DNA of 64,000 bases from Candidatus Multivoradales bacterium (GCA_965223855.1 CBDCXM010000009.1:1152001-1216000), one strand, 5' to 3'; shown: positions 6,102 to 63,998, numbered from the stretch's first letter. The notes: generated by a model not told the origin, from the letters alone. Translations and numbers: made by a program.

Positions 6102-6529
6102 GGCGAACGAAGAGTCAGGGAGACCAGCCACAGAAACCGCAGCGACCAGGCAGCCGTGCGGATCCAGTTGGTCGCCACGAGGCGCCGATGCGCGGCCTCG
6201 TCGAAGCCGGTCTCGAGACGTCGGTGAAGAGGAATCTGGAGGAAGGCGGTCGAAGCCCAGGCGAGAACGACGAGGGCGAAGGCGACTGCCGTCTCGAGCG
6301 GGGTCACCTCCGGTGGTGGTAGGACCAGCCAGATCGCCGCCAGGACGAGCTCCGCGATCATCATCGGCGCCACCACCGGAGTGATGCGCAGGGAGTGCGA
6401 TCGGTGAAAGTGCCGGAACTCCTCCGGCGCCACACGGTCGAACAGCGGGTAGTGCACACACTGGACCACCCAGATCAGCCCGGTGAGGTAGGCGGTGACG
6501 GCGAGCTGCAGCGCGAGAAAGAGGGGCAT
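6098..6529 (-). CDS. Conserved 4-TM membrane protein, function unknown
   Basis: Four hydrophobic segments; GLIWVVQ.VHYP, QIPLH, NWIRT. Confidence 0.75.
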   Translation of the reverse strand: MPLFLALQLAVTAYLTGLIWVVQCVHYPLFDRVAPEEFRHFHRSHSLRITPVVAPMMIAELVLAAIWLVLPPPEVTPLETAVAFALVVLAWASTAFLQIPLHRRLETGFDEAAHRRLVATNWIRTAAWSLRFLWLVSLTLRSP

Positions 6530-31030: not shown

Positions 31031-31891
31031 ATGAGCGGTGGTTTGATCATTCCGATCGGCGGCGCCGAGGACCGGATGCGCGATCCTGCGATCCTGCAGA
31101 AGTTCGTCGACGTCTGCGGCGGCAGGGACGCCCGGATCGCCATCATCCCGACGGCCTCGAGCCTCCCCGAGACCGGCCCCGGCTACGAGAAGGTCTTCGA
31201 GGAACTCGGCGTGCGGCTGGTGCGCTCACTGCCGCTCGAGACGCGCGAGGACTGCAACGATCCGCGCTGGCTCGAACGGCTGGAACGCGCCGACGGCGTC
31301 TTCCTGACCGGCGGCAACCAGTTGAAGCTCTCGACCACCATCGGCGGCACCGAAGTGGCTCGGACCCTCAGGCGGCGCAATGCCGAAGAGGGGCTCCACG
31401 TCGCCGGCACCTCGGCCGGCGCGGCGATCCTCTCCGAGCACATGATCGCGTTCGGCGACGAGGGGTCGACCCCGCACGCCGACATGGTGACGCTGGCGCC
31501 CGGTATCGGGCTCACCCAGAGGGTGATCATCGATCAGCACTTCCGCCAGCGCGACCGGCTGGGGCGACTGCTGACCGCACTGGCCTTCAATCCGCGCGGC
31601 ATCGGCATCGGGCTCGACGAGGACACCGCCGCCTTCCTCTCTCCCGACGGCCTGCTGAAGGTGCGCGGCAGCGGCGCGATCACGGTCGTCGATCCCTCGG
31701 AGCTGGAGTTCTCGTCGATGGATTCGGCGAAACGGCTCGAGCCGGTGTGCATGCTCAACGTGCGGCTTCACATCCTGATCGAGGGGGCGACCTACGACAT
31801 CCCGTCGCGCAGCGCCGCGCCGCCGCCCGCACTCCAGCCGGAGGAGACGCCGTCGAAGGAGCCCGCGCCGAAGGAGGCGGTCACGCCATGA
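31031..31891 (+). CDS. cphB: Cyanophycinase (intracellular)
   Basis: IGGAED, TGGNQ, GTSAGA (Ser), IDQHF (His), GLDEDT (Glu); no signal peptide. Confidence 0.93.
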   Translation: MSGGLIIPIGGAEDRMRDPAILQKFVDVCGGRDARIAIIPTASSLPETGPGYEKVFEELGVRLVRSLPLETREDCNDPRWLERLERADGVFLTGGNQLKLSTTIGGTEVARTLRRRNAEEGLHVAGTSAGAAILSEHMIAFGDEGSTPHADMVTLAPGIGLTQRVIIDQHFRQRDRLGRLLTALAFNPRGIGIGLDEDTAAFLSPDGLLKVRGSGAITVVDPSELEFSSMDSAKRLEPVCMLNVRLHILIEGATYDIPSRSAAPPPALQPEETPSKEPAPKEAVTP

Positions 31892-34683: not shown

Positions 34684-34696
34684 CGGGGTTCCGCTC

Positions 34697-40045: not shown

Positions 40046-40551
40046 GCGACCGGGCTCAGGGCGCCCGTCTACCGGTGCGGCTCGAGGTCAACGGCGCGAG
40101 CTATGAGGGCGAGGCGGAGCCGCGGACGCTCCTTTCCGACTTCCTGCGCCACGACCTCGGGCTGACCGGCACGCACGTCGGCTGTGAGCACGGGGTGTGC
40201 GGCGCCTGTACGGTGCTCTTCGACGGCGAGGCGGTGCGTGCCTGCCTGCTGCTGGCGGTGCAGGCCGACGGCCATCGGATCGAGACGGTGGAGGGGCTCG
40301 CTCCCGCCGACGGCGACGAACGGCTTCATCCGCTGCAGCAGGCGTTCCAGGACGCGCACGGGCTGCAGTGCGGTTTCTGCACCCCGGGCTTTCTGATGAC
40401 GCTGGTGCCGTTCCTCGAGGCGAATCCCGACCCGAGCGAAGAGGAGATCCGGCACGCCATCTCCGGCAACCTGTGCCGTTGCACCGGCTACCAGCACATC
40501 GTCGATGCGGTGCAGCTCGCGGCGCGCCGGCAGCGCGGGGAGGACGAGTGA
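40042..40551 (+). CDS. (2Fe-2S)-binding subunit (CoxS/CutS-like)
   Basis: GCEHGVCGACTV, QCGFCTPG, NLCRCTGY. Confidence 0.94.
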   Translation: MSDRAQGARLPVRLEVNGASYEGEAEPRTLLSDFLRHDLGLTGTHVGCEHGVCGACTVLFDGEAVRACLLLAVQADGHRIETVEGLAPADGDERLHPLQQAFQDAHGLQCGFCTPGFLMTLVPFLEANPDPSEEEIRHAISGNLCRCTGYQHIVDAVQLAARRQRGEDE

Positions 40552-50045: not shown

Positions 50046-50106
50046 GTTCGGCCTTTTCGGGAAGACGGGCGTGAGATTGCGCGTGGAGTGCGCCGTTCCG
50101 CGGCAC

Positions 50107-50127
50107 TTAGTCTACCAGTGAGCACAA
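50107..50127 (-). promoter_or_regulatory. Extended -10 (TGG-TAGACT) within a 21-bp imperfect palindrome upstream of the TonB receptor
   Basis: Minus strand reads TTGTGCTCACTGGTAGACTAA. Confidence 0.4.
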
Positions 50128-50134
50128 GTTGGGT

Positions 50135-50161
50135 GTGCGATCCGTCTCCCTCCGGCGTTTC
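50135..50161 (+). promoter_or_regulatory. Putative ECF sigma promoter, copy 1 (GTGCG-N14-GGCGTTTC)
   Basis: GTGCG atccgtctccctcc GGCGTTTC upstream of the gene at 50237. Confidence 0.7.
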
Positions 50162-50236
50162 CGAAAGAAGACCGACTGCGGTCGGCTTACAGTCGCGGAT
50201 TCGCCGTGACCGTCAGGAGAACAAGGAGACAGGATC

Positions 50237-50752
50237 ATGAGAATGGGAAGAGGACTGAATTTCGTGGGGCTCGTCGTCTGGGCCGTCGTTGCCGGCTGCG
50301 GGGCGGCCGACGCCGGCGAACGTTGCGTAGCCGACATCTCCGGCACCGTTCACTCCTTCGAACACGTCTATGTGCTGAGGGCTCACGATCCCTACGACGG
50401 AGACGACACCACACGGCTCGCGAGGATCGTCTGCTCCGACACCGAGATCGGCGAGCTGCCGACCACCGAAGGCGAGGCGATGGAGGCTCTGATGATGAGG
50501 CCTGACCGGGGTCTGGTGGTGGAAGTGAGAGACAACGGTGAAATCGTCACCGCCGCCGTGACCTGGGACGGGAAGGATGCGTACTGGCCGGGGCCGTTCG
50601 GCGGCTTCTCGGAGCTGACCTTCACCGGTACCAGCGACGGCGAGCGGATCTCGGGGAGCGTCGAGACGAACACGAAGCTCGAGGACTCCGAGAGCGGAGT
50701 GTCGCTCTCGCTCACCGCCGAGATCGACGCCGCGGTCGATGTGACGTTCTGA
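50237..50752 (+). CDS. Small secreted/lipoprotein hypothetical (paralog of 54378..54884)
   Basis: AAGGAG RBS, signal peptide with VAGC, beta-rich mature part. Confidence 0.72.
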   Translation: MRMGRGLNFVGLVVWAVVAGCGAADAGERCVADISGTVHSFEHVYVLRAHDPYDGDDTTRLARIVCSDTEIGELPTTEGEAMEALMMRPDRGLVVEVRDNGEIVTAAVTWDGKDAYWPGPFGGFSELTFTGTSDGERISGSVETNTKLEDSESGVSLSLTAEIDAAVDVTF

Positions 50753-50911
50753 GGGATGGACGGCACGCTCGACCTTGCTCCGGGAACCCCGCCGATCGCG
50801 ACGGTGTGTCTGGACACTCTCGACGCCGTGAAGCTGGGCAGCTCCCGCCGTGCGCCAGGCGCCCCGGTAGAATCGGGTTCGACCGCCAGCCAACGGAGGG
50901 ACCGTTCCAGA

Positions 50912-51496
50912 GTGACATCCGACGACTCAGAAGGTGCGGTCGACCTCGAGTCGACCGCCGTGCTGATCGACCGGGCTCGCTCGGGCGACGACGGGGCGAA
51001 GAACCGGCTGATGGCGCGGTACGTGCCGATCCTTCATCGCTGGGCCCGCGGTCGCCTCCCCTCCTATGCGCGGGATCTCTCCGAGACCGCCGACCTGGTG
51101 CAGATCACGCTGCTGCGTGCGTTGCGCAACCTGGAGCGCTTCGAGTCGCGGGGCGAAGGGGCGTTCCTCGGCTACCTGCGACAGATTCTGCTCAACGCCA
51201 TTCGTGACGAGAAGCGCCGGGTGTCGCGGCGGCCGGGTCACGACGAGTTGCCGGAGAGGCTCGAGGCTCACGAGCCGTCGGCGTTGGAGCGAGCGATCGG
51301 CAGGGAGCGCATGGAGCGCTACGAGGCGGGCCTCGCGACGTTGGAGGAACGTCAGCGGCAGGCGGTGATGTTGCGCCTGGAGTTCGGATTCACCCACGCC
51401 CAGATCGCGGAGGCGATCGACGCTCCGAGCGCGAATGCCGCCCGGATGGTCGTCTCCCGTGGGCTTCTGAGGCTCGCCGAAGCGGTCGCGGCATGA
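50912..51496 (+). CDS. ECF sigma-70 factor, kinase-associated type
   Basis: Region 2 ETADLVQ and F.GYLRQILLNAIRD; region 4 RQAVMLR..GFTHAQIA..A.MVVSRG. GTG start is inferred. Confidence 0.88.
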   Translation: MTSDDSEGAVDLESTAVLIDRARSGDDGAKNRLMARYVPILHRWARGRLPSYARDLSETADLVQITLLRALRNLERFESRGEGAFLGYLRQILLNAIRDEKRRVSRRPGHDELPERLEAHEPSALERAIGRERMERYEAGLATLEERQRQAVMLRLEFGFTHAQIAEAIDAPSANAARMVVSRGLLRLAEAVAA

Positions 51497-51515
51497 CGGT
51501 CCGGTCGGGGGCGCG

Positions 51516-54239
51516 ATGAGCGACGAACGTCGGCCGACGCCGGCCGAGCGGCTCGCTCAGCGGGTCGCGGACGGTGGCGAGGTCGTCTGGGAGAACGAGC
51601 GTCGTCACTCGACGGACGATCGTCTCTCGGGCCTCGAGCTGTTGGAGGCGGTCGGTCGGGTCTTCAAGGGGGAGGCTGCCGGCGAACCGGTCCTCTTTGA
51701 ATGGGGGCCGCTGCAACTGCTCGAGAAGCTGGGGGAGGGTGCGTTCGGGGAGGTCTATCGGGCGCTCGATCCACAGCTCGGGCGACAGGTGGCGCTCAAG
51801 TTGCGGAAGGGCGACGACGGCGCATCGGAGAGCGAAGAGTGGCTGGAGGAGGCACGACGGTTGGCGCGCATTCGCCACCGCAACGTGTTGACCGTCCACG
51901 GGGCCGGCAGCTTCGACGGACGCCAGGGGATCTGGTCGGATCTGATCGAGGGAGAGACGTTGCAGGCCCGGCAGCTTCGGGACGGGCCGATGGGGGCGGG
52001 AGAACTCGTAGCGGTCGGGTCGTCGCTGCTCCAGGCGCTGGCGGCGATCCACGCCGCCGGCATGGTGCACGGCGACGTCAAGCCGTCGAACCTCGTACGC
52101 GAGGTTGGAGGTCGCCTGGTGCTGGTGGACCTCGGGGCCGGAGGATCGATCGGTGCGGCCGAGGCGGCGACCCGCGGGTCGCCGCAAACCGCCGCTCCCG
52201 AGCGGATCCGTGGTGAGCCCTCGTCTGCGCGGGCGGATCTCTACAGCGCCGGAGCGACGCTCTACCAGTTGGCAGCGGGGCGCCCGCCGATCGAGGCGGG
52301 CTCCCTCGGCGAGCTCGCTGAAACCGATCGGGCCGCGACGCCGCTACGCGACCTGAGGCCGGACCTTCCCGCGGAACTCGTCGACGTAATCGAGCAATCG
52401 CTTTCGTTCGCCCCGGGCGACCGCTTCGCTACGGCCGGCGAGATGGAGGCTCGCCTCCGACGCTCGGTGAGCGGCGGCCGCCGGAAGATGCCGTCCCACC
52501 GACGATCTGCGGCGCGCCATCTCACTCTGACCCTGGTCGCCCTCGCGGCCGTTGGCGCCGCGTGGTGGTGGAGCGCCGCACGCCGCCCGGTGGCACTCGG
52601 TCCGGCACACGGTGAGCTGGAGGTCACCCGTCTTCAGGCACAGGGGACAGCGGTGTTCGCGGCGATTTCGCCCGATGGACGCTACGTGAGCTATCTGTCC
52701 GACTTCGGTGAAAAGAGCGCGATACGGCTTCACCAGGTCGCGACCGGTTCCGACCTCGCGCTCGCCGAGTTCACCCGCCACCACCAGGTCAACTACATCG
52801 GCTTCACTCCCGATGGCGCTTACGTCCGCTACACCCTGGGGGAGTTGGGGCAGGCCAATCGTCTGTTCGAGGTGCCGGTCCTCGGAGGGCCGGCAAGCCG
52901 TCTCCTCGACGACGTGGTTCTCGGACTGACGTTCTCGCCCGACGGCTCCGAAGCGGTCTACGTCTCGGGCACGGAGATGGACCAGAGGTGGCAGAGGCTC
53001 GAGCGGGTGCGACTTGCCGACCGGGATCGGCGGACGATCCTGGAGGTCGAGGACGAGTGGGACATCGAGAACGCCGCCTGGTCCCCGAAAGGCGACCGAC
53101 TCGCTCTTTCCCTTTCCGACACCTCGGCGGATCGACTCATGCTGCTACCTGCGGAAGGGGGCGAGCTGGAACCGGTGGTCGGCGATCCGTTCTTCGCCAT
53201 TGGCGACCTGTGCTGGCTTCCGGACGGGCGGCGGATGATCGTCGTGGGTTCGGAAACCGAGCGGGACACCGTCCGACAGTCGTGGCTCGTCGATGTCGAG
53301 ACCGGCGATCGCCGACGACTGTTGCGCGACGTCTCGAACAGCTTCGGCTGCTCGACGACAGCGGATGGCCGGCGGACGGTGCTGACGCGGCATCGGACCC
53401 AGTCGCGACTGTGGGTGACGGAGCTGGAGGAGGGGTCGAGGCCGTCGCTCGTGAACACGACGACCGGCTTCGACGACGGCGTCAGCGCGGTTGCCTGGAT
53501 AGACGACGATTGGGTCGCCTACGTCGCGCCGGATGGCGACACCTACAATCTCTGGCGAGTGCCGATCGACGGCGGGACCTCTGAGCGGCTGACGACCGGA
53601 GGGGCTGAGGCGGTGACGGCGAGTCGCGCCGGCTCGATCGCCTACGAAGCAGGATGGAGTCGAGACAACCGGCAGGGCATCTACCTGATGGAGTTCCCGT
53701 CGCGGGCTGCCCGGCGTCTTTCGCCCGATGGGGTCTATGCCGAGGTGCCGGCTCTCTCACCTGACGGCAGAACGGTGGCCTATTCGCTCCTCGGGGCCGA
53801 GAGGCTTCAGCTCGTGGTGCAGGCGGTCGATGGAGGCGAGCCGAGGGTGGTTTTCGACGGCCCCGCTCACGCAGCGACGTTCTCCCCCGACGGACTTTGG
53901 CTCGCTCTCCATGCCCTCCATCCCGAGGAACGAGTCTGGAAGACCGCGGTCTTCCCGGTAGACGGAAACGGCCCGACCGAGTGGCTCGACATTCACTCGG
54001 ACTCCATGTCCCCGTGGCTGTCGATGGAGACCGTCCTCGTCAGCAAGACCGTCGATCGCGTGGGGAACGTGCTGGCCGTCCCTCGCGACAACTCGGGACC
54101 GCGACCGATAACGGCATTCCAGGAGGGAATGGTCTTTTCCTTCGCCGTCTCGCCGACGGGAGATCGACTCGTCGTCGCGAGAGGCGACTGGGTGAGCGAT
54201 CTGCTGCTCTACGAAGGACACCTCCCGACCGTCGAGTAG
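51516..54239 (+). CDS. Membrane Ser/Thr kinase with extracytoplasmic TolB/PD40 beta-propellers (kinase 1)
   Basis: LGEGAFGEVY, VALK, HGDVKPSN, DLG, APE, DLYS; one TM; many SPDG repeats. Confidence 0.9.
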   Translation: MSDERRPTPAERLAQRVADGGEVVWENERRHSTDDRLSGLELLEAVGRVFKGEAAGEPVLFEWGPLQLLEKLGEGAFGEVYRALDPQLGRQVALKLRKGDDGASESEEWLEEARRLARIRHRNVLTVHGAGSFDGRQGIWSDLIEGETLQARQLRDGPMGAGELVAVGSSLLQALAAIHAAGMVHGDVKPSNLVREVGGRLVLVDLGAGGSIGAAEAATRGSPQTAAPERIRGEPSSARADLYSAGATLYQLAAGRPPIEAGSLGELAETDRAATPLRDLRPDLPAELVDVIEQSLSFAPGDRFATAGEMEARLRRSVSGGRRKMPSHRRSAARHLTLTLVALAAVGAAWWWSAARRPVALGPAHGELEVTRLQAQGTAVFAAISPDGRYVSYLSDFGEKSAIRLHQVATGSDLALAEFTRHHQVNYIGFTPDGAYVRYTLGELGQANRLFEVPVLGGPASRLLDDVVLGLTFSPDGSEAVYVSGTEMDQRWQRLERVRLADRDRRTILEVEDEWDIENAAWSPKGDRLALSLSDTSADRLMLLPAEGGELEPVVGDPFFAIGDLCWLPDGRRMIVVGSETERDTVRQSWLVDVETGDRRRLLRDVSNSFGCSTTADGRRTVLTRHRTQSRLWVTELEEGSRPSLVNTTTGFDDGVSAVAWIDDDWVAYVAPDGDTYNLWRVPIDGGTSERLTTGGAEAVTASRAGSIAYEAGWSRDNRQGIYLMEFPSRAARRLSPDGVYAEVPALSPDGRTVAYSLLGAERLQLVVQAVDGGEPRVVFDGPAHAATFSPDGLWLALHALHPEERVWKTAVFPVDGNGPTEWLDIHSDSMSPWLSMETVLVSKTVDRVGNVLAVPRDNSGPRPITAFQEGMVFSFAVSPTGDRLVVARGDWVSDLLLYEGHLPTVE

Positions 54240-54297
54240 ACGTCCCTGATCCCCCGCCTTCCCCGCGGTTCCGGCCCGCAGCGCTCTTGCCAGGTCC

Positions 54298-54324
54298 GTG
54301 CGGTCCTCGGAGCGAAGGCGTTTC
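54298..54324 (+). promoter_or_regulatory. Putative ECF sigma promoter, copy 2
   Basis: GTGCG gtcctcggagcgaa GGCGTTTC upstream of the gene at 54378. Confidence 0.7.
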
Positions 54325-54377
54325 ATGGGGTGGCGATCGGCAGCGGATGCCGGTGCCTTCGACCGCAAGGAGGAGTT

Positions 54378-54884
54378 GTGAAGAAGAAAGCAGGAATGCG
54401 AGTTGCTGCCACGGTTCTCGGGCTGATGTGCCTGGCCGGTTCGCTCGAGGCTGACTCGAGTTGCTCGTTGACGGTCGGGGGAGAGGAGTTGTCTTTCCCC
54501 CACGTCGTTGCCGTGGCCACGAAGAACTGGTTCGACGACAGTCTCGAGGACGTCGACGTCTACTGCTTCCGGGTGCCGGTCCCCGAGGACAAGCGCTCCT
54601 CCGAAGCGATCCTCTGGTTCGAGAACGACAACCACATCACGATCTCCATCGCCGCGCCCCAGATGCACGTCGGCGCGGTCAGGATTCACACCGAGGAGGT
54701 CAGCGCCTCGATCTCGGGGATCGGCTTCGGGGTCGACTTCGAAGGGAGCCGGAGCGGCGACAGGCTCTCCGGAACGATCTCCACCCCGGAACCGAAGTCG
54801 ACGCTGAGCGATGGCGAGCGTGGGCCCGAGTGGAAGCTCTCCGCGGAGCTCGATCTCCAGGTATGGCCTCAGATCGAGCGCTGA
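54378..54884 (+). CDS. Small secreted hypothetical (paralog of 50237..50752)
   Basis: AAGGAGG RBS then GTG; signal peptide; beta-rich. Confidence 0.72.
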   Translation: MKKKAGMRVAATVLGLMCLAGSLEADSSCSLTVGGEELSFPHVVAVATKNWFDDSLEDVDVYCFRVPVPEDKRSSEAILWFENDNHITISIAAPQMHVGAVRIHTEEVSASISGIGFGVDFEGSRSGDRLSGTISTPEPKSTLSDGERGPEWKLSAELDLQVWPQIER

Positions 54885-54894
54885 CGTCTCCTCG

Positions 54895-54923
54895 GCTCAG
54901 CACTGGGCCGCTCAGCGCTGGGC
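54895..54923. repeat. Tandem 15-bp-period repeat GCTCAGCRCTGGGC x2
   Basis: Copies at 54895-54908 and 54910-54923, each near-palindromic, just before TATGCT at 54931. Confidence 0.55.
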
Positions 54924-54969
54924 GCTCTTGTATGCTGGAACCGTCTGCAGGAGGACGGCGCAAGACGAG

Positions 54970-57570
54970 ATGGGTGGCAACCACCGGCACGACGCAGCTG
55001 CCGACACCGGCCTCCCCTTTGAGTGGGGTCCGCTCCAAGTTCTCGAGAAGCTGGGTGAAGGCAGCTTCGGAGAGGTCTATCGAGCGCGCGATCCCGCGCT
55101 CGGTCGAGAGGTCGCCCTCAAGCTCCTGCGCGGTGACGAGGCGACCGGGTCGACGGACGACTGGCTCGATGAGGCCAGGCGGCTGGCGAAAGTCCGACAC
55201 CCCAATGTGCTGACGGTGCACGGGGCCGGCACCTTCTCGGGCCTGGCCGGATTGTGGTCGGATTTGCTCGAGGGTGAGTCGCTCGAGGAGCGCCTGCTTG
55301 CAGATGGCCCTTTCGGCGAAGGGGAGGTCGTCGCCGTCGGCTGCGCGCTGTGCCGCGCTCTGGCCGCGCTTCATCGCGGCGGCCTGGTACACGGGGACAT
55401 CAAGACCTCCAACGTGATTCGCACGGAGGACGGTGAGTTCGTGCTGATCGACCTCGGCGCGTCCAGCGAGGTCGATCAGCCGTCGACGGTTTGGCGCCAG
55501 GGCTCGCCGGCGACGAGCGCTCCGGAGGTGCTTCGAGGCGAGGCTTCGACCTCATCGTCCGACCTCTACTCTCTCGGAGCTCTCCTCTACCGGCTGGCCT
55601 CCGGCGCGCCGGTCCTCCGGGCTCGGAGCCTCGAGGAGTTACTCGAGCGGGCGTTGTCCGGCGACATCGCGCCCCTCGTCGACCTGCGCCCCGATCTTTC
55701 TCCCTCGCTGACGTCCGTCATCGCCAGGGCGCTCAGCGCCGACCCGGGGGAGCGCTATCCGACTGCGGGCGCCATGGAGGCGGCCCTGGTGTCCGGGGGG
55801 CGTGTGCGTCGGCGAGGGCGTTCCTGGAGCTGGGCGGCGGCAGCCCTGGCGGCCTTGGGTGTCGTGGCGGGAGCTTCACGTTTCTGGTTCGCGCAGCCGG
55901 AGGGGGGAGCGCGTTCGGAGGGACGTGTCCGACGACTGGTGACTCAGGGGGACCCGGTAGTCGCGGCGATCTCTGCGGACGGCGAGTACGTGGCCTACAC
56001 CTCGTCCGAGGGGGGATTCCGCCTCGTCGGCGGCGGCAATTCGGTGCGCCTCCAGCAGATCGAGTCGGGTCGCGACATCGAGCTCGTGCCGGCGGTCGAC
56101 TTCGGGTTCTTCTTCGAGTCCCTCGCCTTCAGCCCGGACGGAGAGTACGTTCGCTACACGGTCGGTTCGACCGGCACAGCCAAGGCCGTCTGGCAGGTAC
56201 CGATCCTCGGAGGTGACGCGGAGTTGCTCGCCGAGGATGTTCTGGGTCGACCGACGTATTCGCCTGACGGCGGAAGTCTGGCCTTTGCGGCAGCCGAGGA
56301 GTTCACCGACCCGTGGATCCGGCTCGATGTCGTCGACCTCGAGCGAGGGGGGCGCCGAACCCTCCTCGAGTTGACCGACGGCGGCGAACTCGAGGAGGTG
56401 GCGTGGTCGCCTGACGGCAAGAGGATCGCCTTCGTCGTCTGGGACGGAGGCCGCGAACGCCTGCGGGTGGTCACTCCCGATGGGTCGGACTCACGAGCGG
56501 TGCCTTCCGTGTCGTTCCCCGACATCGAGGGTCTCTGCTGGGCTCCCGACGGTCGAGATCTGGTCGTTCTCGCAGGCTCGATCGACCCCTTCTCCATGCA
56601 CCCCTGGCTGGTCGATCACAGGACCGGGGAGCAGCGCCGGCTGTTGCGTGACTTTCATCGCTACTCCGGGTGTTCGCGAGACCGCACCGGTGCGGTGACG
56701 GCGATGATCAGGATCGAGGAGCGAGCACAGCTGTGGGTCGCCCCCGTCGGCAGCCCGGAGGGTGCGTACCCGGTCAGGACGACGACCGGGCGGTCCGACG
56801 GCAGCATTCGGGTAACCTGGGAGAACGACGACAGCCTCCTCTACGAGGCTCCCGGAGGGGAAGGCTGGTACTTGTGGCGAGTCCCAGCCACTGGTGGTCT
56901 CTCGACTCGCGTCGCGGCCGAGCCCGCGCGTGCTGCTGCGGTCGACGACTCAGGGCGGATCGTCTTCTATTCCGGTTGGACCTTCGACGACCGGGCCGGC
57001 ATCTACACGGTGCCCGGCAACGGCGGCCCGCCACGCCGTCTCTCGCCGCTGCACTCTTACGCCGAGCGACCGACGGTCTCGCGAGATGGTGAGTGGATCT
57101 TCTACGAGCTTTTCGACGGCGAGAGGTGGCACTTCGTGCGATCGGAGCGCAGCGGCGGCGAACCCATCGCCGTCAGCCGCAGGCAGTCGCATCTCGCCAG
57201 CTTCTCCCCCGACGGGCGACGCTTCGCGTTGCACGAGTTCGACCCGGTGATCGGCCGGTGGGGGACAGCGATCTATCCGTTCGACACAGACAGTCGCCAA
57301 GAGAGCGAGCCTACGAGATGGCTCGATCTTCACTCCGAGACCTACTCCCCCTGGGCCGACGACGGCTCGCTCTTCGTGTCCAGGATGATCGACGGAGTCG
57401 GCAACATCTACCGGGTGGACCTCGATGACCTGGAGGAGCAACAGGTCACGTTCTTTCGTGAAGGGGTCATCTTCTCCTTCGATCTCTCTCCGGACGGGAC
57501 GCGCCTGGCGGTCAGCAGGGGTTCCGTGATCAACGACCTGCTTCTGGTCGAGGGGCTGCTGGAGCGCTAG
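54970..57570 (+). CDS. Membrane Ser/Thr kinase with TolB/PD40 beta-propellers (kinase 2)
   Basis: FEWGPLQVLEKLGEGSFGEVY, HGDIKTSN, DLG, APE; TM; SPDG repeats; collinear with kinase 1. Confidence 0.9.
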   Translation: MGGNHRHDAAADTGLPFEWGPLQVLEKLGEGSFGEVYRARDPALGREVALKLLRGDEATGSTDDWLDEARRLAKVRHPNVLTVHGAGTFSGLAGLWSDLLEGESLEERLLADGPFGEGEVVAVGCALCRALAALHRGGLVHGDIKTSNVIRTEDGEFVLIDLGASSEVDQPSTVWRQGSPATSAPEVLRGEASTSSSDLYSLGALLYRLASGAPVLRARSLEELLERALSGDIAPLVDLRPDLSPSLTSVIARALSADPGERYPTAGAMEAALVSGGRVRRRGRSWSWAAAALAALGVVAGASRFWFAQPEGGARSEGRVRRLVTQGDPVVAAISADGEYVAYTSSEGGFRLVGGGNSVRLQQIESGRDIELVPAVDFGFFFESLAFSPDGEYVRYTVGSTGTAKAVWQVPILGGDAELLAEDVLGRPTYSPDGGSLAFAAAEEFTDPWIRLDVVDLERGGRRTLLELTDGGELEEVAWSPDGKRIAFVVWDGGRERLRVVTPDGSDSRAVPSVSFPDIEGLCWAPDGRDLVVLAGSIDPFSMHPWLVDHRTGEQRRLLRDFHRYSGCSRDRTGAVTAMIRIEERAQLWVAPVGSPEGAYPVRTTTGRSDGSIRVTWENDDSLLYEAPGGEGWYLWRVPATGGLSTRVAAEPARAAAVDDSGRIVFYSGWTFDDRAGIYTVPGNGGPPRRLSPLHSYAERPTVSRDGEWIFYELFDGERWHFVRSERSGGEPIAVSRRQSHLASFSPDGRRFALHEFDPVIGRWGTAIYPFDTDSRQESEPTRWLDLHSETYSPWADDGSLFVSRMIDGVGNIYRVDLDDLEEQQVTFFREGVIFSFDLSPDGTRLAVSRGSVINDLLLVEGLLER

Positions 57571-57617
57571 CGGCGCGCTTCATGTGTGGCCGCGGATCGA
57601 GCGCTGAGAGACGGCAG

Positions 57618-58574
57618 CTACCGACCCGAGGAAGAGACGACGAGGCCTCCTTCCAGGACCTCGAACTCCTGCCACACAGACCACTTGCGCGCGCACTCGG
57701 GGTCGTAGGGCCGAACCCGCACCTGGAAGATGCCCGGGCCGGTGTTGGTGCGTGTCGCGGAGAGGACGATCGTCAGGGGGAAGTTGCGAGCGGCGGCGAC
57801 GGTGACCAGGCCCGGGAGCGGTGTGAATCTCCGCCCCTCCAGCTTCTCCCACTCGATCTCGACGAGCTCGGGCCGCGGGTCTCGATCGAGCTGTTGGAAG
57901 TCGAGCTGGAACGATGCGATCTCGCCGACCTTGTACTGCTCGTTCGCGGGTGGGGAGGAGACCATCAGCGCCGGGATCCGTTCCGGGGTGCAGACCTCCT
58001 CGGCGATCGGCGGTGGGAACGCCTCGACCGGCGGCAGCGCGGCCGGCTCCTGAGACGGGGCGCAATTCTCCTCTACCGGATGTTCGGCGAGATCGGCCTC
58101 GGAGAAGAGCAATCTCGCGACCGGCTTCGCCTCCTTCGCGGCATCGAGAAAGGCGATCGGCAGGGGTGAGATCGTCGTATGGAAGTCGGCGTCGCTGCAC
58201 GTCGCTGCGGCGTCGGTGAACGGGTCGAGATCGCAGGTGGCCGAGAACCAGATCTCTCCGGGCCCGACCTGGTACTGGTTGAGGATCGGGCGCACGGAGT
58301 AGGTTTCGCCGACGCTGCCGCCGTCGGCCTTCCAGCTGAGAGTGCCCTCGATGAAGTGCACGCCGTACGGGCTCTTGCAGTAGCCCTCGACCTGGTACGA
58401 GGACTTGAACCCCGGGCAGCGGTACGCCTCGATGACGTCGAACCCGCAGTAGTTGGAGACCGCTTCGATTCGCGAGAGATCGTGCCCCAGAAGGAGGCAC
58501 CCCTGCACGGTCAGGCCGAGAGCGCCGACAAGGACCGCGCCGGCGAGCCGAGGTGACGATCTCGAGAGATTCAT
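57618..58574 (-). CDS. Cys-rich putative lipoprotein, function unknown
   Basis: VQGC lipobox-like motif, multiple Cys, Ig-like C-terminus; ATGA overlap with the upstream gene. Confidence 0.65.
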   Translation of the reverse strand: MNLSRSSPRLAGAVLVGALGLTVQGCLLLGHDLSRIEAVSNYCGFDVIEAYRCPGFKSSYQVEGYCKSPYGVHFIEGTLSWKADGGSVGETYSVRPILNQYQVGPGEIWFSATCDLDPFTDAAATCSDADFHTTISPLPIAFLDAAKEAKPVARLLFSEADLAEHPVEENCAPSQEPAALPPVEAFPPPIAEEVCTPERIPALMVSSPPANEQYKVGEIASFQLDFQQLDRDPRPELVEIEWEKLEGRRFTPLPGLVTVAAARNFPLTIVLSATRTNTGPGIFQVRVRPYDPECARKWSVWQEFEVLEGGLVVSSSGR

Positions 58575-58870
58575 CCTTCGGTCGTCGACTCTGTCTCGAG
58601 CCGGACACCACCGGCCCACTTGAGACCGAAGTTCGTCAGCCAGGTGAGGATGAGCATGCCGACGAAGCCGACGAGCCCGTAGCCGATCGGCAGAAAGAGG
58701 ATCGCGCCGAAGCCGAGGATTCCTCCGAGGGCGCCGGCTTCGCCTCCGGCGGCCTGGCCGCCGACGAGCGCGAGGAGAGTCAGTAGCAAACCGGACACCA
58801 GGCCGACGAGAACGTAGGTGATGCCGACGACCTTGGCGACGGAGACAGGGTCAAAACGGGTGATACGCAT
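58571..58870 (-). CDS. Small 2-TM membrane protein (DUF3566-like)
   Basis: ITRFDPVSVAKV, two TMs, C-terminal GGVRLE; AAGGAG RBS. Confidence 0.72.
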   Translation of the reverse strand: MRITRFDPVSVAKVVGITYVLVGLVSGLLLTLLALVGGQAAGGEAGALGGILGFGAILFLPIGYGLVGFVGMLILTWLTNFGLKWAGGVRLETESTTEG

Positions 58871-58948
58871 GGGGGCTCCTTTCAGGCGGCTCGGCTCCAT
58901 GCCGAGCCCGGTTGTAGCGATGGACTTGTGGTGCTGCACTCAGAAGGG

Positions 58949-58975
58949 GAAACGCCGGCGCCGGCCCGAGCGCAC
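58949..58975 (-). promoter_or_regulatory. Putative ECF sigma promoter, copy 3
   Basis: Minus strand GTGCG ctcgggccggcgcc GGCGTTTC upstream of the gene starting at 58870. Confidence 0.7.
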
Positions 58976-58976
58976 G

Positions 58977-59714
58977 CTAGTCGTTGCCGAAGGCGGCCTC
59001 CCACCAGCGCGGCCGGATCCAGCCCAGGCTGAAGTGGAGCGTCTCGGTCAGGTAGGACCGACCGTCCTCCTCGATCCGGTAGTCGACGACGACGCTCCCT
59101 CTTCCCTGGGGAATCGTGAAGGCGGCGACCAGGCTCTCGCGTTGGTTCCAGTCGGCCGGAAACCACCGCTCGAGGTGGCGGTCGCTCGCGCGAGTCCAGA
59201 GCGGGTCGAGCCGTTGCCCGTCGACCCTCCACACCACGTCCGTCGGGTAGAGCACCCGCTGGTCGTGGAACGTGCGCGAGCTGTACGGGCGCGGTGGATC
59301 CTCGAAGCGCCACAGCACGGCCCAGACCTCTGGTGCGGCGAGCTTGCGGGCCTCCTCGAGGTCGATCGCTTTACAGCCACGACTGCGCCCCATCAGGTAG
59401 AGGCGCAGGTAGGGGGTCAGTAGCACCCCGTGCGCGTTCCGGGCGCCGGTTCGGGCGAGGTAGAGCGGGCCGGGGAAGTCGAAGTTCCCGTCCGCTCCGC
59501 GGTAGAGCTCGAAGCGCTCGGCTCGATCGCAGCCTCGATGGACGGCCTGGACGATGGCATCGTCGGTCCAGGGCTCTCCAGCGACGGCGGGGAGAGAGAC
59601 GGCCGCCAGGGCGACGAGCACCTGGACGGGATGCCACAGCGGCGACGAAGAAGCTGCACAGGCCTGCAAGGAAGGTCTCCTCTCGATTGCGAGGCGCCCC
59701 GTTGCGCCGCGCAT
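58977..59714 (-). CDS. Secreted hypothetical protein
   Basis: Hydrophobic signal-like segment VLVALAAVSLPAVA followed by a Trp/Arg-rich domain; start codon uncertain. Confidence 0.6.
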   Translation of the reverse strand: MRGATGRLAIERRPSLQACAASSSPLWHPVQVLVALAAVSLPAVAGEPWTDDAIVQAVHRGCDRAERFELYRGADGNFDFPGPLYLARTGARNAHGVLLTPYLRLYLMGRSRGCKAIDLEEARKLAAPEVWAVLWRFEDPPRPYSSRTFHDQRVLYPTDVVWRVDGQRLDPLWTRASDRHLERWFPADWNQRESLVAAFTIPQGRGSVVVDYRIEEDGRSYLTETLHFSLGWIRPRWWEAAFGND

Positions 59715-59719
59715 ACAGA

Positions 59720-59746
59720 GAAACGCCGCGTCTGCCGCGCCCGCAC
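59720..59746 (-). promoter_or_regulatory. Putative ECF sigma promoter, copy 4
   Basis: Minus strand GTGCG ggcgcggcagacgc GGCGTTTC, ending 5 nt before the ATG at 59714. Confidence 0.7.
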
Positions 59747-59770
59747 GCAGAACCGGGCGGCTGCTGCCGG

Positions 59771-61138
59771 TCAGTCGTCGTGGCGGCGGGGAAGAACCCT
59801 CTGCAGGAGCAGGGCGGCCAGCCCGCCGGTGATCAGTCCGGCGCCGAAGATCTCCTGGGCCCATCCCGGTAGCTTTCCCAAAGCGTCGGGCCGCAGCTCG
59901 ATGCCGAGACCGAGACCGATCGACACCGCCATGATCACGAGCGTTCGTTGATTCCACGCCTCACCCTCGTGCACCATCCGCGCGCCGCTGGTGAAGATCA
60001 TGGCAAACAGCACCAGTCCGGCGCCGCCGATCACCGACGCCGGGATCGCGGCAAAGAGCGCACCGAACTTGGGGACGAGCCCCATCAGGCAGAGCAGCCC
60101 TCCGGTGACGGCGGTGACGTGGCGGCTCGCCACGCCGGTGAAATTCACGAGGCCGACGTTCTGCGAGTAGGAGGTGTTGGGAAAGGCGCTCCAGACGGCG
60201 GCCAGTGCGCTCATGACGCCGTCGGCCAGGAGGCCCCCTCGAAGCTCCCGAGTGGTCGGCTCGCGACCCGCGACGGCCAGTGTGCCGGCGATGTCGCCGA
60301 GTGTCTCCATCGTCGAGACGACGTAGAGGAAGGCGACGACCACGATCGGCTGCCAGTGGAACTCGAGGCCGAAAGTCAGCGGGCGCGGCAGAGACCACCA
60401 GTCGGCTTCGGTCACAGCGCCGAGATCGAAACGGCCGAGGGCCAGTGCCACGCCGCAGCCGAGAGCGATGGCGAGGAAGATGCTGCCGTAGCTGGCGAAG
60501 CCGCGGCCCCACTGCTGGAGAGCGACGGCGGCGACCAGGACGAGCGCGGCGACGCCCAGGTGGAGTGGGTCGCCGTAGTCGGCGGCACCGATGCCGCCCG
60601 CCGCGAAGTCGACCCCCACCGGGATCAGGGTGAGCCCGATCAGCATGACGACGATGCCGTTGACCAGCGGCGGGAACCAGTGGCGCACCCGCTTCAGACC
60701 GAGTCCCAGCACGACCTCGACGCTCGCCGCAGCCAGACAGGCGCCGAAGACCGTCGGCAGCCCGTACTGCCGGCCGACGGCGATCAGCGCGCCGGCGAAG
60801 GCGACGGAGGTTCCCATGACGATCGGGATCCGTCCGCCGATCGGACCTACGGGAAAAGCCTGGACGATCGTCGCCAGCCCTGCCATCACCAGCACCATCT
60901 GCACCAGCACCGCGGTGTCCGCAGGCGAGACGCCGATGCCGCGGGCGATGATCAGCGGCACCGCGACGTTCGACAGGATCATCGCCACCAGGTGCTGAAG
61001 GCCCAGTGGCAGCGCCTCCCGCAGAGGAGGCCGGTCGTCGAGGCCGTAGACGACTCGCGACGGCGAGGGAGAGTTGCTGGTGTCGATGGGGCCGATGTTA
61101 GCGGCGCGGCTGGAGGGCGGGTACCGGCCCGGCGTCAC
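59771..61138 (-). CDS. NCS2/NAT xanthine/uric acid permease
   Basis: GLQH, MGTS, FPPLV.G, ETLGD, DG, signature SYSQNVGLVNFTGVASR; start codon uncertain. Confidence 0.9.
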   Translation of the reverse strand: MTPGRYPPSSRAANIGPIDTSNSPSPSRVVYGLDDRPPLREALPLGLQHLVAMILSNVAVPLIIARGIGVSPADTAVLVQMVLVMAGLATIVQAFPVGPIGGRIPIVMGTSVAFAGALIAVGRQYGLPTVFGACLAAASVEVVLGLGLKRVRHWFPPLVNGIVVMLIGLTLIPVGVDFAAGGIGAADYGDPLHLGVAALVLVAAVALQQWGRGFASYGSIFLAIALGCGVALALGRFDLGAVTEADWWSLPRPLTFGLEFHWQPIVVVAFLYVVSTMETLGDIAGTLAVAGREPTTRELRGGLLADGVMSALAAVWSAFPNTSYSQNVGLVNFTGVASRHVTAVTGGLLCLMGLVPKFGALFAAIPASVIGGAGLVLFAMIFTSGARMVHEGEAWNQRTLVIMAVSIGLGLGIELRPDALGKLPGWAQEIFGAGLITGGLAALLLQRVLPRRHDD

Positions 61139-63998
61139 CGGAGAGGACGAAGCCCGCCCAGTAGTAGGGGTGCCTCGTCCCCTCGAGTTCCGGATCCTCG
61201 CTGCCGAGGCCCAGCCTCGTAGAGCCTCGGCTCAGGACACCGGCTCCGCCGGGGAGCGCTTCGCCGGAGAGAGCCGCCAGCTGAACGCTGCGAAGAGCCT
61301 CGGCTCGACCGGCACCGGACATGAGCTGGCGGTACCACGAGGCCATCAACTCGCGGGTTGCGACATCGTCGATCTGCCACAGGGTCGTCAACTGGCTGCG
61401 TGAGCCGGCCAACAGGAGCGCCCGGCGCAGGCCGAAGACCCCCTGGCCGTCCCGCACCTCCCCTTTGCCGGTCTCGCACGCCGAAAGCGCGACGATCTCG
61501 GTACCCGCCAGATCGAGATCGAGCATCTCGAGGGCGGTCAGCACGCCGTCGTCGGTTCCGTCCTCGCGGCTGCCTCGCTCGTTGAAGCCGGCGAGCGCGA
61601 GCCCCGAGGCGGTCAGCGAGTCGAACGAGCGTCCATCCGCGCGTGGCGGGGCGTCGGGTGGCGGCGGCGGGGCGACGGTGTCGGTGGCGAGAAAGAAGCC
61701 GTGGGTCGCCAGGTGGAGGACCGCCGGCGCTCTTGCGGTCCGCAGTGCCGCCTCGCTGGCCTCGGCGCCGGCGAGGGTCACGGGCCCGAGGGCGGCCATC
61801 AGGGCGGAGATCTCGCGCACCTCGCCGGCCGTGCCCGGAAGCTCGGCGAAGCTGACCGCCCCGAGAGGGTCTCCGTCGGTCGTTCCTCCACCTTCGCCGA
61901 AGTCGATGCCGCCCATCAGAAGGGGCGCGCTCTGCGGTCTCGACTCGGTTCGGCGCGCCAGGTCTCGACCGCTCGTCAGGAGGGTGATCTCGAAGGTCTC
62001 GACCAGGTAGCGCCCGTCCTCGTCGACCAGCGCGGCAAAGGGCACCAGATGCAACACGCCGTCGGGGGCGATCAGCAGCCGGGTGCGATCCTCCAGGAAC
62101 GGGCGGAGAGGCTCGAAGGCGAGCCTCGACAGCGCCGCACCGAGGGCACGGACGTCATGGCGGATGTTGCCGACAGATTCAGCGAACGCGAGGGCCGCTT
62201 CGTCGATGACGTCGGCGGGCCCGAGGTCGACGGCCCTCACGCCGCCGAGAGCGTCGAGCACGTAGGCGGCGTAGCGTCGCGTTCCGTGGCGCCTCCCCGG
62301 CGCCGCCTCGAAGTCGACCGGCCAGTAGCCGACGAACTCGACCAGTGCGGTTCCACGTCCCAGCCCCCGCGTTACCTGCTCCACGGTGACGCTGGTTCGT
62401 TCGACGGGTACGAGTTCCGACAGGTCCCCTGCCATGCGCTCGATCGCGGCGTCGACGATGGCGATGTCGCGACGGTGCTTTCGCTCCGAGGAGTCGAGGC
62501 GCGCCCGACGGGCTCTGAGGTCGGCGAGCCGTTTCTGGATGTCCCGGGCCTGAACGCCGAGACCATCGTGGAAGAGCGAACGTGCTGCGGCCTCGACGTC
62601 GAGCGGCCTCCCCTTGCGGCGAAGGATCGCGCTCAGCGCGATCCGAGCCGCCCGTGGATCGTCGCTTCGGTGCAGCAGGTGCAAGTCGACCGCCCAGTTG
62701 GCAGTGCTCCGCCCCTGCTCCAGGAAGAGTCGCTTTTCGGCATCGGTGCCCTGTGAGAGGACGTCGATGAGCAGGGCCTCCTCACTCTCCAGGCTCTTCT
62801 CGAGCGCATCGAGCGCGCCGTCGAGGTCGCCGGTTCGCTGGGCGAGGATCGCCAGATTGACCTGGCTCACCCGGGCGAGGGCCGCTCCGCGAGCCGTCTG
62901 GGCCGCCAGCACGTCCTGGTAGAGCGCCCGCGCCGCCTCGAAGTCGCCCGAGTCGGCGAGCAGCGTCGCCAGGTTCATGCGCGCGATGTCGCTGTCCGGG
63001 TCGTCGAGCCCCTGCTCGGCGACCTGGCGGCTTGCGGCTTCGCGCGCGCGCGCCAGAGCCTTCTGCTCGCTGCCCTCCAGCCAGTCGAGGGCGGCCAGGT
63101 TGTTGAGCACCTGAGCTGCGTAGGAGCCGTCGGGCTGAGCGTCGAGGATCGGCAGCACCGCTTCGAACTCCGATCGTGCTTCGCTGCGGCGGCCGAGCTG
63201 CTGGAGGATCGAGGCGCGGTTCGAGCGCGCGATTGCCGCCTGGATCGAAGTCGGTCCGGCGGCGGTCTCCAGCGTCTCCACCGCCCGGTCGGCGCGCTCG
63301 AGCGCGCTCTCGAAGTCGCCCACGGCGTGCAGCAGGGTGGCAAGGTTGTCGTAGCTCTTGCCGAGTTCCTCCGGTGGCGTGAGTGGGTTGCGTTCCGAGA
63401 TCGACAGCGAGCGCTCGAGGTACGCGCGCGCCCGCGAGAAGTCGCCGCGGTCGCGCAGCAGCAGACCGAAGTTGTTGAGCGTCACCCCGGTCAACGGGTC
63501 GATCGGGCCGAGCTTCTCCTCCCGCACCGCGAGGGTGCGCTCGAACTCGCGCCCGGCCTCGTCCCACTCGCCGATCTCGTAGAGCAGTCCGGCGAGTTGA
63601 TGGCGGTAGGTCGCCGTCTCCTCGTGATCCGGTCCCAGCAGACGCTCGAACGATAGAACCACGCGCCGTGCGAGCGGCACTGCCTCCGCCGGCCGGCCCG
63701 CGTCGCCCAGGGCCAAGGCGAGGAAGGAGGCGGTCATCAACGCCTCGGGGTCGTCCGGGTCGCCCGCGCGGTCGAAGGTCGCGAGCGCCGCCTGGTAGAG
63801 CGGGATCGCACGATCCGGGTCGCCCAACTGCCAGTGGAGCTGGGCGAGTGCCGAGGCGGCTCCGGCAGTCAACTCGTGCTCGGCGCCGACGGCGTCCGTC
63901 AGATGATCGAACACGATCGCCGCCAGCTCGCGGGCCGCGTCGAGGTCGCCGAGCGCCCGGTGCACATTCACCAGCAGGACGGCGCACGCCGTCGCGTC
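61098..63998 (-). CDS. TPR + CHAT (caspase-like) domain protein (5'-truncated by window edge)
   Basis: Kinesin-light-chain-type TPRs; IAPDG.L..VPF.AL, LHLATHGF, LSACETG, LWQIDD, HPYYWAGF. Confidence 0.92.
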   Translation of the reverse strand, partial: DATACAVLLVNVHRALGDLDAARELAAIVFDHLTDAVGAEHELTAGAASALAQLHWQLGDPDRAIPLYQAALATFDRAGDPDDPEALMTASFLALALGDAGRPAEAVPLARRVVLSFERLLGPDHEETATYRHQLAGLLYEIGEWDEAGREFERTLAVREEKLGPIDPLTGVTLNNFGLLLRDRGDFSRARAYLERSLSISERNPLTPPEELGKSYDNLATLLHAVGDFESALERADRAVETLETAAGPTSIQAAIARSNRASILQQLGRRSEARSEFEAVLPILDAQPDGSYAAQVLNNLAALDWLEGSEQKALARAREAASRQVAEQGLDDPDSDIARMNLATLLADSGDFEAARALYQDVLAAQTARGAALARVSQVNLAILAQRTGDLDGALDALEKSLESEEALLIDVLSQGTDAEKRLFLEQGRSTANWAVDLHLLHRSDDPRAARIALSAILRRKGRPLDVEAAARSLFHDGLGVQARDIQKRLADLRARRARLDSSERKHRRDIAIVDAAIERMAGDLSELVPVERTSVTVEQVTRGLGRGTALVEFVGYWPVDFEAAPGRRHGTRRYAAYVLDALGGVRAVDLGPADVIDEAALAFAESVGNIRHDVRALGAALSRLAFEPLRPFLEDRTRLLIAPDGVLHLVPFAALVDEDGRYLVETFEITLLTSGRDLARRTESRPQSAPLLMGGIDFGEGGGTTDGDPLGAVSFAELPGTAGEVREISALMAALGPVTLAGAEASEAALRTARAPAVLHLATHGFFLATDTVAPPPPPDAPPRADGRSFDSLTASGLALAGFNERGSREDGTDDGVLTALEMLDLDLAGTEIVALSACETGKGEVRDGQGVFGLRRALLLAGSRSQLTTLWQIDDVATRELMASWYRQLMSGAGRAEALRSVQLAALSGEALPGGAGVLSRGSTRLGLGSEDPELEGTRHPYYWAGFVLSGDAGPVPALQPRR

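Follow-up and report, generated by a model that had tools for sequence, protein, structure and literature searches.

The 64,000-nucleotide stretch of DNA analyzed here at its full length (Candidatus Multivoradales bacterium, GCA_965223855.1 CBDCXM010000009.1:1152001-1216000; hereafter the window) carries, within 10 kb, four identical copies (P1–P4) of a two-part, promoter-like motif, GTGCG-N14-GGCGTTTC, placed around genes for a predicted extracytoplasmic function (ECF) sigma factor and two predicted receptor Ser/Thr kinases. A relaxed form of the motif recurs beside genes for relatives of this sigma factor in several phyla. We consider it very probable that the motif is the promoter of this sigma factor, in which case the locus would amount to a small regulon of envelope proteins, autoregulated and with feedback on both kinases. 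The fuller proposal, in which P1–P4 are promoters read by the local sigma factor and the regulon, the autoregulation and the control by the first kinase all operate as set out below, is in our judgment probable; that kinase 1 exerts this control by phosphorylating the sigma factor directly is favored with somewhat less assurance.

Four Copies of a Bipartite Motif

An exact search returned four matches to GTGCG-N14-GGCGTTTC in the window, where 0.01 would be expected, and none of 100 dinucleotide shuffles of the window contained four copies or more. An earlier, sequence-only reading of the window had described the same four intergenic copies with their variable 14-nt spacers and had reckoned the pattern rarer than once per 64 kb by chance, and both statements were reproduced. 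No copy with a single mismatch was found in the window; when up to two mismatches were allowed, six sites were recovered against 4.47 expected, which is the chance level, and both of the extra sites carry two mismatches. The octamer GGCGTTTC occurs five times in the 64 kb, four of them within the motif copies. Because the spacers of P1–P4 are mutually unrelated and their flanks fail to align, the four sites are not copies of one duplicated segment.

All four copies are intergenic in our reading of the sequence, and each is aimed at a start codon 51–79 nt downstream. P1 (50135..50161, +) lies between a divergent TonB-receptor gene (start 50045) and gene A, 76 nt before the ATG at 50237, and heads gene A, the sigma gene and kinase 1. 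P2 (54298..54324, +), between the kinase 1 stop codon (54239) and gene D, stands 54 nt before the GTG at 54378 and heads gene D and kinase 2. On the opposite strand, P3 (58949..58975, −) begins one base past the stop codon of gene F, 79 nt before the ATG at 58870, and heads genes G and H, and P4 (59720..59746, −) begins 24 nt past the stop codon of a permease gene (xanthine/uracil-type), 51 nt before the TTG at 59669, and heads gene F. Rfam gave no match on 49900–60000 at E up to 1, and the motif is therefore not a known RNA element. A scan for sigma-70-type promoters found none, and terminator-like sites were weak and few (seven against 3.9 expected), with none between gene A and the sigma gene.

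The Motif Recurs beside Relatives of the Sigma Factor

We sampled 80 loci (designated by L numbers) that encode relatives of the sigma factor at 47–81% identity, from assemblies of Thermoanaerobaculia, other Acidobacteriota, Eisenbacteria, Latescibacteria, Krumholzibacteriia and Gemmatimonadetes. The exact motif matched at three of these 80 loci, and the pattern was then relaxed to GTGCG-N13-16-CGTTT. In this form it is found 120–350 nt upstream of the sigma gene in five loci (L004, L005, L006, L008 and L009) and upstream of the gene F homologue in all three loci that have one (L003, L004 and L006), where the homologue adjoins the sigma gene behind the motif. Two copies in L004 point divergently at the sigma gene and the F homologue, and the layout of L003 (motif, F, motif, next gene) is the same as that of the window.

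A weight matrix was then built from 15 sites (the four of the window and 11 from L003–L009). In a scan that let the gap differ by one base, it found 34 sites of at least 18 bits across the 74 loci outside the training set (1.09 Mb), compared with a single site in the reversed sequence and zero to three in five shuffles, which puts the enrichment near this sigma family, within 10 kb and in several phyla, at about 30-fold. The matrix also scored sites from outside its training set at 106 nt (L001), 189 nt (L002) and 115 nt (L003) ahead of the sigma start, and the motif is upstream of the sigma gene in eight of the nine closest loci. Of 68 non-training loci, 6 had a site no more than 500 nt upstream of the sigma gene, as did 24 of 1360 control windows (Fisher test, P = 0.002), and 36 of all 45 sites are on the strand of the sigma gene. 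The proposal of the sequence-only reading that the motif is a promoter tied to this sigma factor gains support from the scan of these orthologous loci, in which the motif is enriched beside sigma genes, precedes the sigma gene in the closest relatives and is also found before the F homologues. A further matrix hit in the window, at 40366–40394 (13.8 bits), is inside an amidase gene and was taken as chance.

Across the family the motif takes the form GTGCGGTT, a gap of 13–14 nt, CGTTT, and then T-G-A about 8 nt further on. The T, G and A at +7, +8 and +9 after the motif, positions outside the matrix, are present in 21, 31 and 29 of 49 sites, respectively (binomial p 7.5e-6, 3e-5 and 4e-11), a pattern of conservation that fits what would be a fixed transcription start. 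If transcription starts at this element, the in-frame ATG at 59714, just 6 nt from P4, would lie upstream of the transcript and the TTG at 59669, which has a GAGGAG ribosome site, would be the start of gene F. Among the window copies themselves, the full TGA is present at P3 alone (58941–58943, −); P2 has TGG and P4 has TGC. The genes behind the motif in relatives are the sigma gene, the kinase gene and varying exported or surface proteins, the exported targets including some that carry type IX secretion sorting domains, proteins with LVIVD or RCC1 repeats, one Sel1 protein, membrane proteins with DUF3592 and small secreted proteins that belong to no family. In five loci from Latescibacteria and Eisenbacteria (L016, L024, L034, L040 and L048), the motif precedes large proteins with Por_Secre_tail and FlgD_ig domains.

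A Sigma Gene Paired with a Predicted Receptor Kinase Gene

The sigma gene (50912..51496, +) encodes a protein of about 194 residues from the GTG at 50912, within an open reading frame (ORF) that is open from the ATG at 50756 and would yield 246 residues. We placed the start at GTG 50912 because homologues are about 190–200 residues long and align from residue ~55 of the long ORF, and because a GGAGGG site lies 10 nt before this codon. Pfam recognized ECF domains only, all above cutoff (Sigma70_r2, 45 bits; Sigma70_r4_2, 31.3 bits; Sigma70_ECF, 29.1 bits), and the protein scored 63 against TIGR02937 (cutoff 42.9). Region 2.2 reads E-T-A-D in the window and [D/E]-T-x-D in 119 of 120 homologues. 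The Thr of the longer pattern [D/E]-T-x-D-[LIVM]-V-Q, residue 59 of the 194-residue protein (111 of the long ORF), is found in all 120 homologues at a position where canonical ECF sigma factors have Ala, and a Ser in the linker, residue 123 (175 of the long ORF), is nearly invariant.

Kinase 1 (51516..54239, +) comprises an N-terminal motif, a Hanks-type kinase domain (Pfam Pkinase, 8.5e-30), one membrane segment (about residues 336–354) and a PD40/TolB-like beta-propeller (PD40, 3.2e-10; similarity to the TolB propeller is below cutoff). Its paralogue kinase 2 (54970..57570, +; likely start ATG 54970, ORF open from ATG 54811) is 44% identical to it over 867 residues and has the same Pfam domains (Pkinase, 4.7e-37; PD40, 1.4e-14), with the membrane segment at residues 343–361 of the long ORF; by hydropathy, the single membrane segment of each protein is weakly hydrophobic. 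Alignment places the catalytic motifs in both predicted kinases (the GEGxFGEV glycine loop, VALK, HGDxKxSN, DLG and APE), and the nearest solved relatives of the kinase domains are PknE, PknA and PknB. The Pfam matches thus confirm the ECF sigma factor and the two kinases that the sequence-only reading had recognized, as well as its description of a sigma factor with a neighboring kinase and no anti-sigma factor: the kinase gene follows directly, and no anti-sigma family was matched among the sigma neighbors in Pfam and NCBIfam scans. A defence-system label was rejected, since the PADLOC matches (PD-T4-6, mad6) reflect the generic kinase domain alone and none was returned for the other seven proteins.

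This pairing is conserved: of the 68 loci with 1200 nt of room, 61 have a Hanks-type kinase gene immediately after the sigma gene. The sigma-adjacent kinases share an N-terminal module of roughly 55 residues (A-x-x-[IV]-[AS]-D-x-x-x-V-D-W, then L-x-x-L), which in kinase 1 occupies residues 1–62 (51516–51701, +) with conserved positions Ala14, Asp19, Trp25 and Leu40, the last three invariant in 30 sequences. In 50 of 67 sigma-adjacent kinases, similarity to kinase 1 begins within its first 20 residues and includes the module. It had no Pfam match at E up to 1 and no PDB match better than E 0.76, and it is absent from kinase 2 in all three frames.

The sensor parts are interchangeable. Among 21 relatives' kinases scanned, out of 32 that are complete, DUF4384 was found in 13, TPR without DUF4384 in four, FG-GAP in two, AAA/STAND in three (the L023 kinase has both TPR and AAA and is counted in both groups) and PD40 in none; the propeller kinases of the window are therefore a local variant, and by its apparent descent the propeller kinase is one that was duplicated together with a small gene and a promoter. 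The sensor part of the sigma-adjacent kinase is swapped between lineages (L002, L003, L006, L008, L009, L040, L044, L023, L072 and others).

A second recurrent neighbor is a TPR-CHAT (caspase-like) protein, encoded in the window at 61098..63971 (−; Pfam CHAT, 1.8e-74, plus TPR repeats) by an ORF that has no stop before the window end and runs off it, and whose N-terminus may lie beyond. Among the 80 relatives' loci, 24 (L010, L015, L017, L019 and others) encode such a protein no further than 10 kb from the sigma gene. The 11 such proteins that were read through are about 1060–1120 residues long, several with a signal-peptide-like N-terminus, and no anti-sigma domain or membrane anchor was seen in them. 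By analogy with published systems considered below, the TPR-CHAT protein may be a third component.

Proposed Target Genes and Neighboring Regions

A signal peptide, lipobox or membrane segment is present in all five targets (A, D, F, G and H). Gene A (50237..50752, +) encodes a predicted lipoprotein of 171 residues whose lipobox, VAGC, is at residue 18; it fell into no Pfam or NCBIfam family, and a set of 5.8 billion proteins held one homologue, at 52% identity. Its fold model (pLDDT 65.9) had no PDB match that reached E 0.001, the closest being an LpqH-like lipoprotein (E 0.019, TM 0.25/0.34). Gene D (54378..54884, +), which has an AGGAGG site before the GTG at 54378, encodes a predicted secreted protein of 168 residues that is a weak paralogue of A (BLASTP, 23% identity, E 4e-7), and two Cys are invariant in the A/D family. 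Gene F (58977..59669, −) encodes a predicted secreted protein of 230 residues with a signal-peptide-like N-terminus, from a rare family with one homologue in the 5.8-billion-protein set; its fold model (pLDDT 72.8) likewise had no PDB chain at E 0.001 or better. Gene G (58571..58870, −) encodes a predicted membrane protein of 99 residues with hydrophobic segments at about 7–42 and 44–83 and no Pfam or NCBIfam family. The start of gene H (57618..58574, −) overlaps the stop of gene G (ATGA), which confirms the coupling to the 58870 gene that had been claimed for a lipoprotein gene at 58574; it encodes a predicted lipoprotein of 318 residues (N-terminus ...TVQGC) with just six relatives among 1.84 billion representatives. 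Neither the fold models nor the Atlas searches of the target proteins gave a usable function, the Atlas yielding only leads (DUF6252 at 0.86 for gene A and, weakly, Big_7, an Ig-like domain, at 0.86 for gene H).

One domain in L006 is matched by both A and D, and it is encoded beside an F-like piece: a single ORF (5591–6277, −) joins a piece like the C-terminus of F to this A/D-like domain, through either an assembly frameshift or a true fusion. In either case, A/D-like and F-like target families co-occur behind the motif in L006.

The spacer between gene A and the sigma GTG, 159 nt that this choice of start leaves untranslated, is less well folded than its shuffles (z +2.06). An additional, basal promoter could be located in it (within 50756–50911). 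Outside the sigma/kinase locus the window is ordinary chromosome. At 31747–36382 (+), a cyanophycin synthetase-like gene precedes a second gene of the Mur-ligase type, and a gene for a peptidase S51 (cyanophycinase family) stands immediately upstream; this has the look of a standard cyanophycin locus with no connection to the sigma/kinase finding.

A Proposed Regulatory Circuit and Its Alternatives

We propose that P1–P4 are read by the ECF sigma factor of 50912–51496, with GTGCG as the core of the −35 element, CGTTT as the −10 element, 16 nt between them, and a transcription start probably about 8–9 nt past the last motif base. P1 would drive gene A, the sigma gene and kinase 1, which would give positive autoregulation; P2 would drive gene D and kinase 2, P4 gene F, and P3 genes G and H, the operon boundaries being those that we infer. 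Besides its own regulators, the regulon would then comprise five small proteins of rare families, each of them secreted, a lipoprotein or in the membrane. Kinase 1, as a predicted single-pass receptor kinase with a periplasmic beta-propeller, would be the cognate regulator of the sigma factor, most likely by direct phosphorylation as in other kinase-linked ECF sigma factors, with region-2.2 Thr 59 (111 of the long ORF) and linker Ser 123 (175 of the long ORF) as candidate phospho-sites. The propellers may, to judge from domain content only, be the receivers of a presumed signal. Kinase 2 would be a duplicated sensor made under sigma control, probably adding a second input or a feedback loop.

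Measured against this proposal, the earlier interpretation is right in kind and wrong in several details. The regulon had been taken as five envelope targets; all five do have the expected export or membrane features, but the sigma gene, kinase 1 and kinase 2 would belong in it as well. P1 does face a small envelope gene, as had been stated, although it is best read as the autoregulatory promoter of an operon of gene A, the sigma gene and kinase 1. The targets assigned at 50237, 54378 and 58870 stand, whereas for the one assigned at 59714 we prefer TTG 59669 with its GAGGAG site. Kinase 2, which had been regarded together with kinase 1 as an input, is a possible input and also an output, since P2 precedes it. 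The notion of twin, equivalent kinases fails on the N-terminal module, which kinase 1 shares with most sigma-adjacent kinases and kinase 2 lacks, and the notion of a self-contained system fails on the recurrent TPR-CHAT neighbor. The analogy drawn with EcfP/PknT is weaker than claimed, in that [D/E]-T-x-D is kept here where ECF43 lost the acidic residues.

Several observations weigh against this circuit, some bearing on the promoters and some on the kinases. The promoter reading draws on where the copies lie and how they are conserved; the matrix was drawn up post hoc, with some of its sites from relatives chosen by the relaxed pattern; and the −35 part of the window copies is without the TT that follows GTGCGG in most relatives. 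It is nonetheless highly improbable that the four copies are chance occurrences or functionless remnants of local duplication. Genes A and D and kinases 1 and 2 are paralogue pairs, so P1 and P2 could descend from one duplicated unit, and the motif itself was defined after the fact; against this, 0.01 copies would be expected, the 13 motif positions are identical and the spacers unrelated although the proteins now share 23% and 44% identity, P3 and P4 head unrelated genes, and the recurrence of the motif in other organisms already contradicts such an origin. Improbable, although less extremely so, is that the motif serves some other regulator (a different sigma factor or a DNA-binding protein whose gene lies elsewhere), with the local sigma gene merely one of its targets. 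In its favor, such bacteria encode many ECF sigma factors (about ten per genome on average; PMC7826278), and a motif within 500 nt upstream of the sigma gene is present in just 12 of 74 loci. The last figure also means that autoregulation is a feature of the close clade and not of the whole family; in four Eisenbacteria loci (L060, L061, L062 and L070), the motif stands some 630 nt past the sigma start, in the interval that separates the sigma and kinase genes, and sigma control there would fall on the kinase gene rather than on the sigma gene. A foreign regulator, however, sits poorly with a directional, two-part motif that has a fixed 16–17 nt gap and a CGT-type −10 like those of ECF promoters, with its roughly 30-fold enrichment, seen in several phyla, at distances of up to 10 kb from this sigma family, and with the divergent copies that head the sigma gene and F homologue in L004.

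The remaining alternative accepts the motif as a real promoter of the sigma factor and questions the kinases: they would not control it via phosphorylation, the sigma factor being run mainly by its own transcription or by another factor, while the kinase acts on other substrates or tethers or inhibits the sigma factor. We hold this to be unlikely. In its favor, both acidic DxxD positions are kept in the sigma factor, as the acidic [D/E]xxD of region 2.2 is in 119 of 120 homologues, whereas ECF43 needs phosphorylation because its acidic charges are lost (PMC8999054); the sigma factor might accordingly bind core RNA polymerase unphosphorylated, and phosphorylation could even inhibit it. Of the four residues, the conserved Thr is the second, and the phospho-Thr of ECF43 the third (PMC13147305). 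In L001 (9864–10582), the closest relative with a sigma factor 81% identical, there is no kinase gene within 10 kb on either side, and the motif stands 106 nt before the sigma gene. Kinase 2, which is without the conserved N-terminal module, may not act on the sigma factor at all. Opposed to these points are the kinase gene that follows the sigma gene in 61 of 68 loci from several phyla, the module conserved in 50 of 67 kinases, the Thr that is invariant in region 2.2 where canonical ECF sigma factors have Ala, and the finding of no anti-sigma candidate in Pfam and NCBIfam scans of the neighbors. On balance we retain the proposed circuit, in which phosphorylation by kinase 1 is likely and could be of either sign.

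A more speculative idea, which we regard as doubtful, is that the N-terminal module of the sigma-adjacent kinases is a sigma-docking or anti-sigma-like domain. If so, a fused holder-and-kinase would keep a competent sigma factor, its acidic region 2.2 intact, at the membrane, and would release or switch it by phosphorylating the invariant Thr. Swappable sensors (PD40, DUF4384, TPR, FG-GAP and STAND) would then sit on one conserved core, an exported TPR-CHAT protease would be the third, periplasmic component, and the module-less kinase 2 would signal through kinase 1 alone.

Significance of the Locus

Kinase-linked ECF sigma factors are common in genomes, and ECF43 is the only one that has been studied at the bench. 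The locus described here would present a second type in testable form, with one sigma factor, its cognate kinase and, in the same 10 kb, four identical copies of the promoter, and the promoter consensus holds as well in uncultured Acidobacteriota-like, Eisenbacteria, Latescibacteria and Gemmatimonadetes genomes. Because it has kept its acidic core-binding residues, this sigma factor can show whether phosphorylation does more than supply missing charge. The motif also offers a way to predict regulons of this sigma clade in metagenome-assembled genomes, and the pair of promoter and sigma factor could serve as an orthogonal expression part. The target proteins of the regulon are rare orphans.

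Comparison with Known Systems

The general features of ECF sigma factors are all found in this protein, which has regions 2 and 4 only, is 194 residues long (the range being about 170–220) and has a predicted two-part promoter with a CGT-type −10. Its nearest solved structure by sequence is ShbA of Streptomyces (PDB 9isn / 9m84, PMC12019637; E 4.2e-11 over residues 7–189); ShbA is nevertheless distant, reads VEDLAQE in region 2.2 and shows no kinase link in the alignment seen. Among the papers searched, none treats Thermoanaerobaculia jointly with an ECF sigma factor, and the portion examined of the PMC7826278 supplement describes no GTGCG or TGCGG promoter.

The best-characterized point of reference is ECF43, whose members EcfP (with PknT, Vibrio parahaemolyticus) and EcfK (with PknS, Xanthomonas citri) are directly phosphorylated by adjacent kinases (PMC8999054, PMC13147305). 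In these proteins the acidic DAED/DxxD of region 2.2 is replaced by the uncharged, S/T-rich QTTA, and a phospho-Thr at position 3 supplies the charge for core polymerase binding (PMC8999054, PMC13147305). The present system shares with ECF43 the Sigma70_ECF signature, the lack of an anti-sigma gene, a single-pass receptor Ser/Thr kinase directly downstream, and a conserved Thr in region 2.2 together with a conserved Ser/Thr in the linker, the linker Ser recalling the EcfK linker sites. In contrast to ECF43, it keeps the acidic [D/E]-T-x-D; it is therefore not an ECF43 sigma factor, and the phospho-switch is not simply transferable from EcfP. The sensor of the ECF43 kinase is an extracytoplasmic TPR, whereas a PD40 propeller is found here and mostly DUF4384 in relatives; the predicted ECF43 promoter is GTC (−35) / CAG (−10) rather than GTGCG / CGTTT (PMC7826278); and ECF43 was confined to Proteobacteria in the 2021 classification.

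The TPR-CHAT neighbor has its own precedents. The DdvS/DdvA pair of Myxococcus xanthus combines an ECF sigma factor with an anti-sigma factor bearing a periplasmic TPR-CHAT domain (PMC11506125), and ECF54 has a neighboring CHAT-TPR protein (PMC7826278). Similarly, a TPR-CHAT protein with a predicted export signal recurs beside the sigma gene here (24 of 80 loci); unlike in DdvA, it is a separate protein, and the kinase takes the place of the anti-sigma factor.

Also comparable are the planctomycete kinase-linked groups ECF62, ECF59, ECF61 and ECF217, which are known from genomics alone (PMC7826278). The best NCBIfam match of the sigma factor is a planctomycete subfamily (TIGR02984), although its score of 78.8 bits is far below the cutoff of 183.75. 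As in ECF62, the kinase gene is at +1 and the kinase has one membrane helix and an extra N-terminal module, and the WD40-type beta-propeller sensor of ECF62s1 and s2 has a counterpart in the propeller found here (PMC7826278). The differences from ECF62 concern the kinase N-terminus, which is a zinc finger there and has no Cys in residues 1–62 of kinase 1; the promoters, which are reported as not conserved there and are sharply conserved here (both PMC7826278); and the taxa, which are Thermoanaerobaculia-like, Eisenbacteria, Latescibacteria, Krumholzibacteriia and Gemmatimonadetes here. By these described features the sigma factor stands outside ECF43 and its locus differs from those of ECF62, and, as far as its predicted features go, the locus belongs to the general kind in which an ECF sigma factor stands beside a Ser/Thr kinase with no anti-sigma factor, as a member of an uncharacterized clade.

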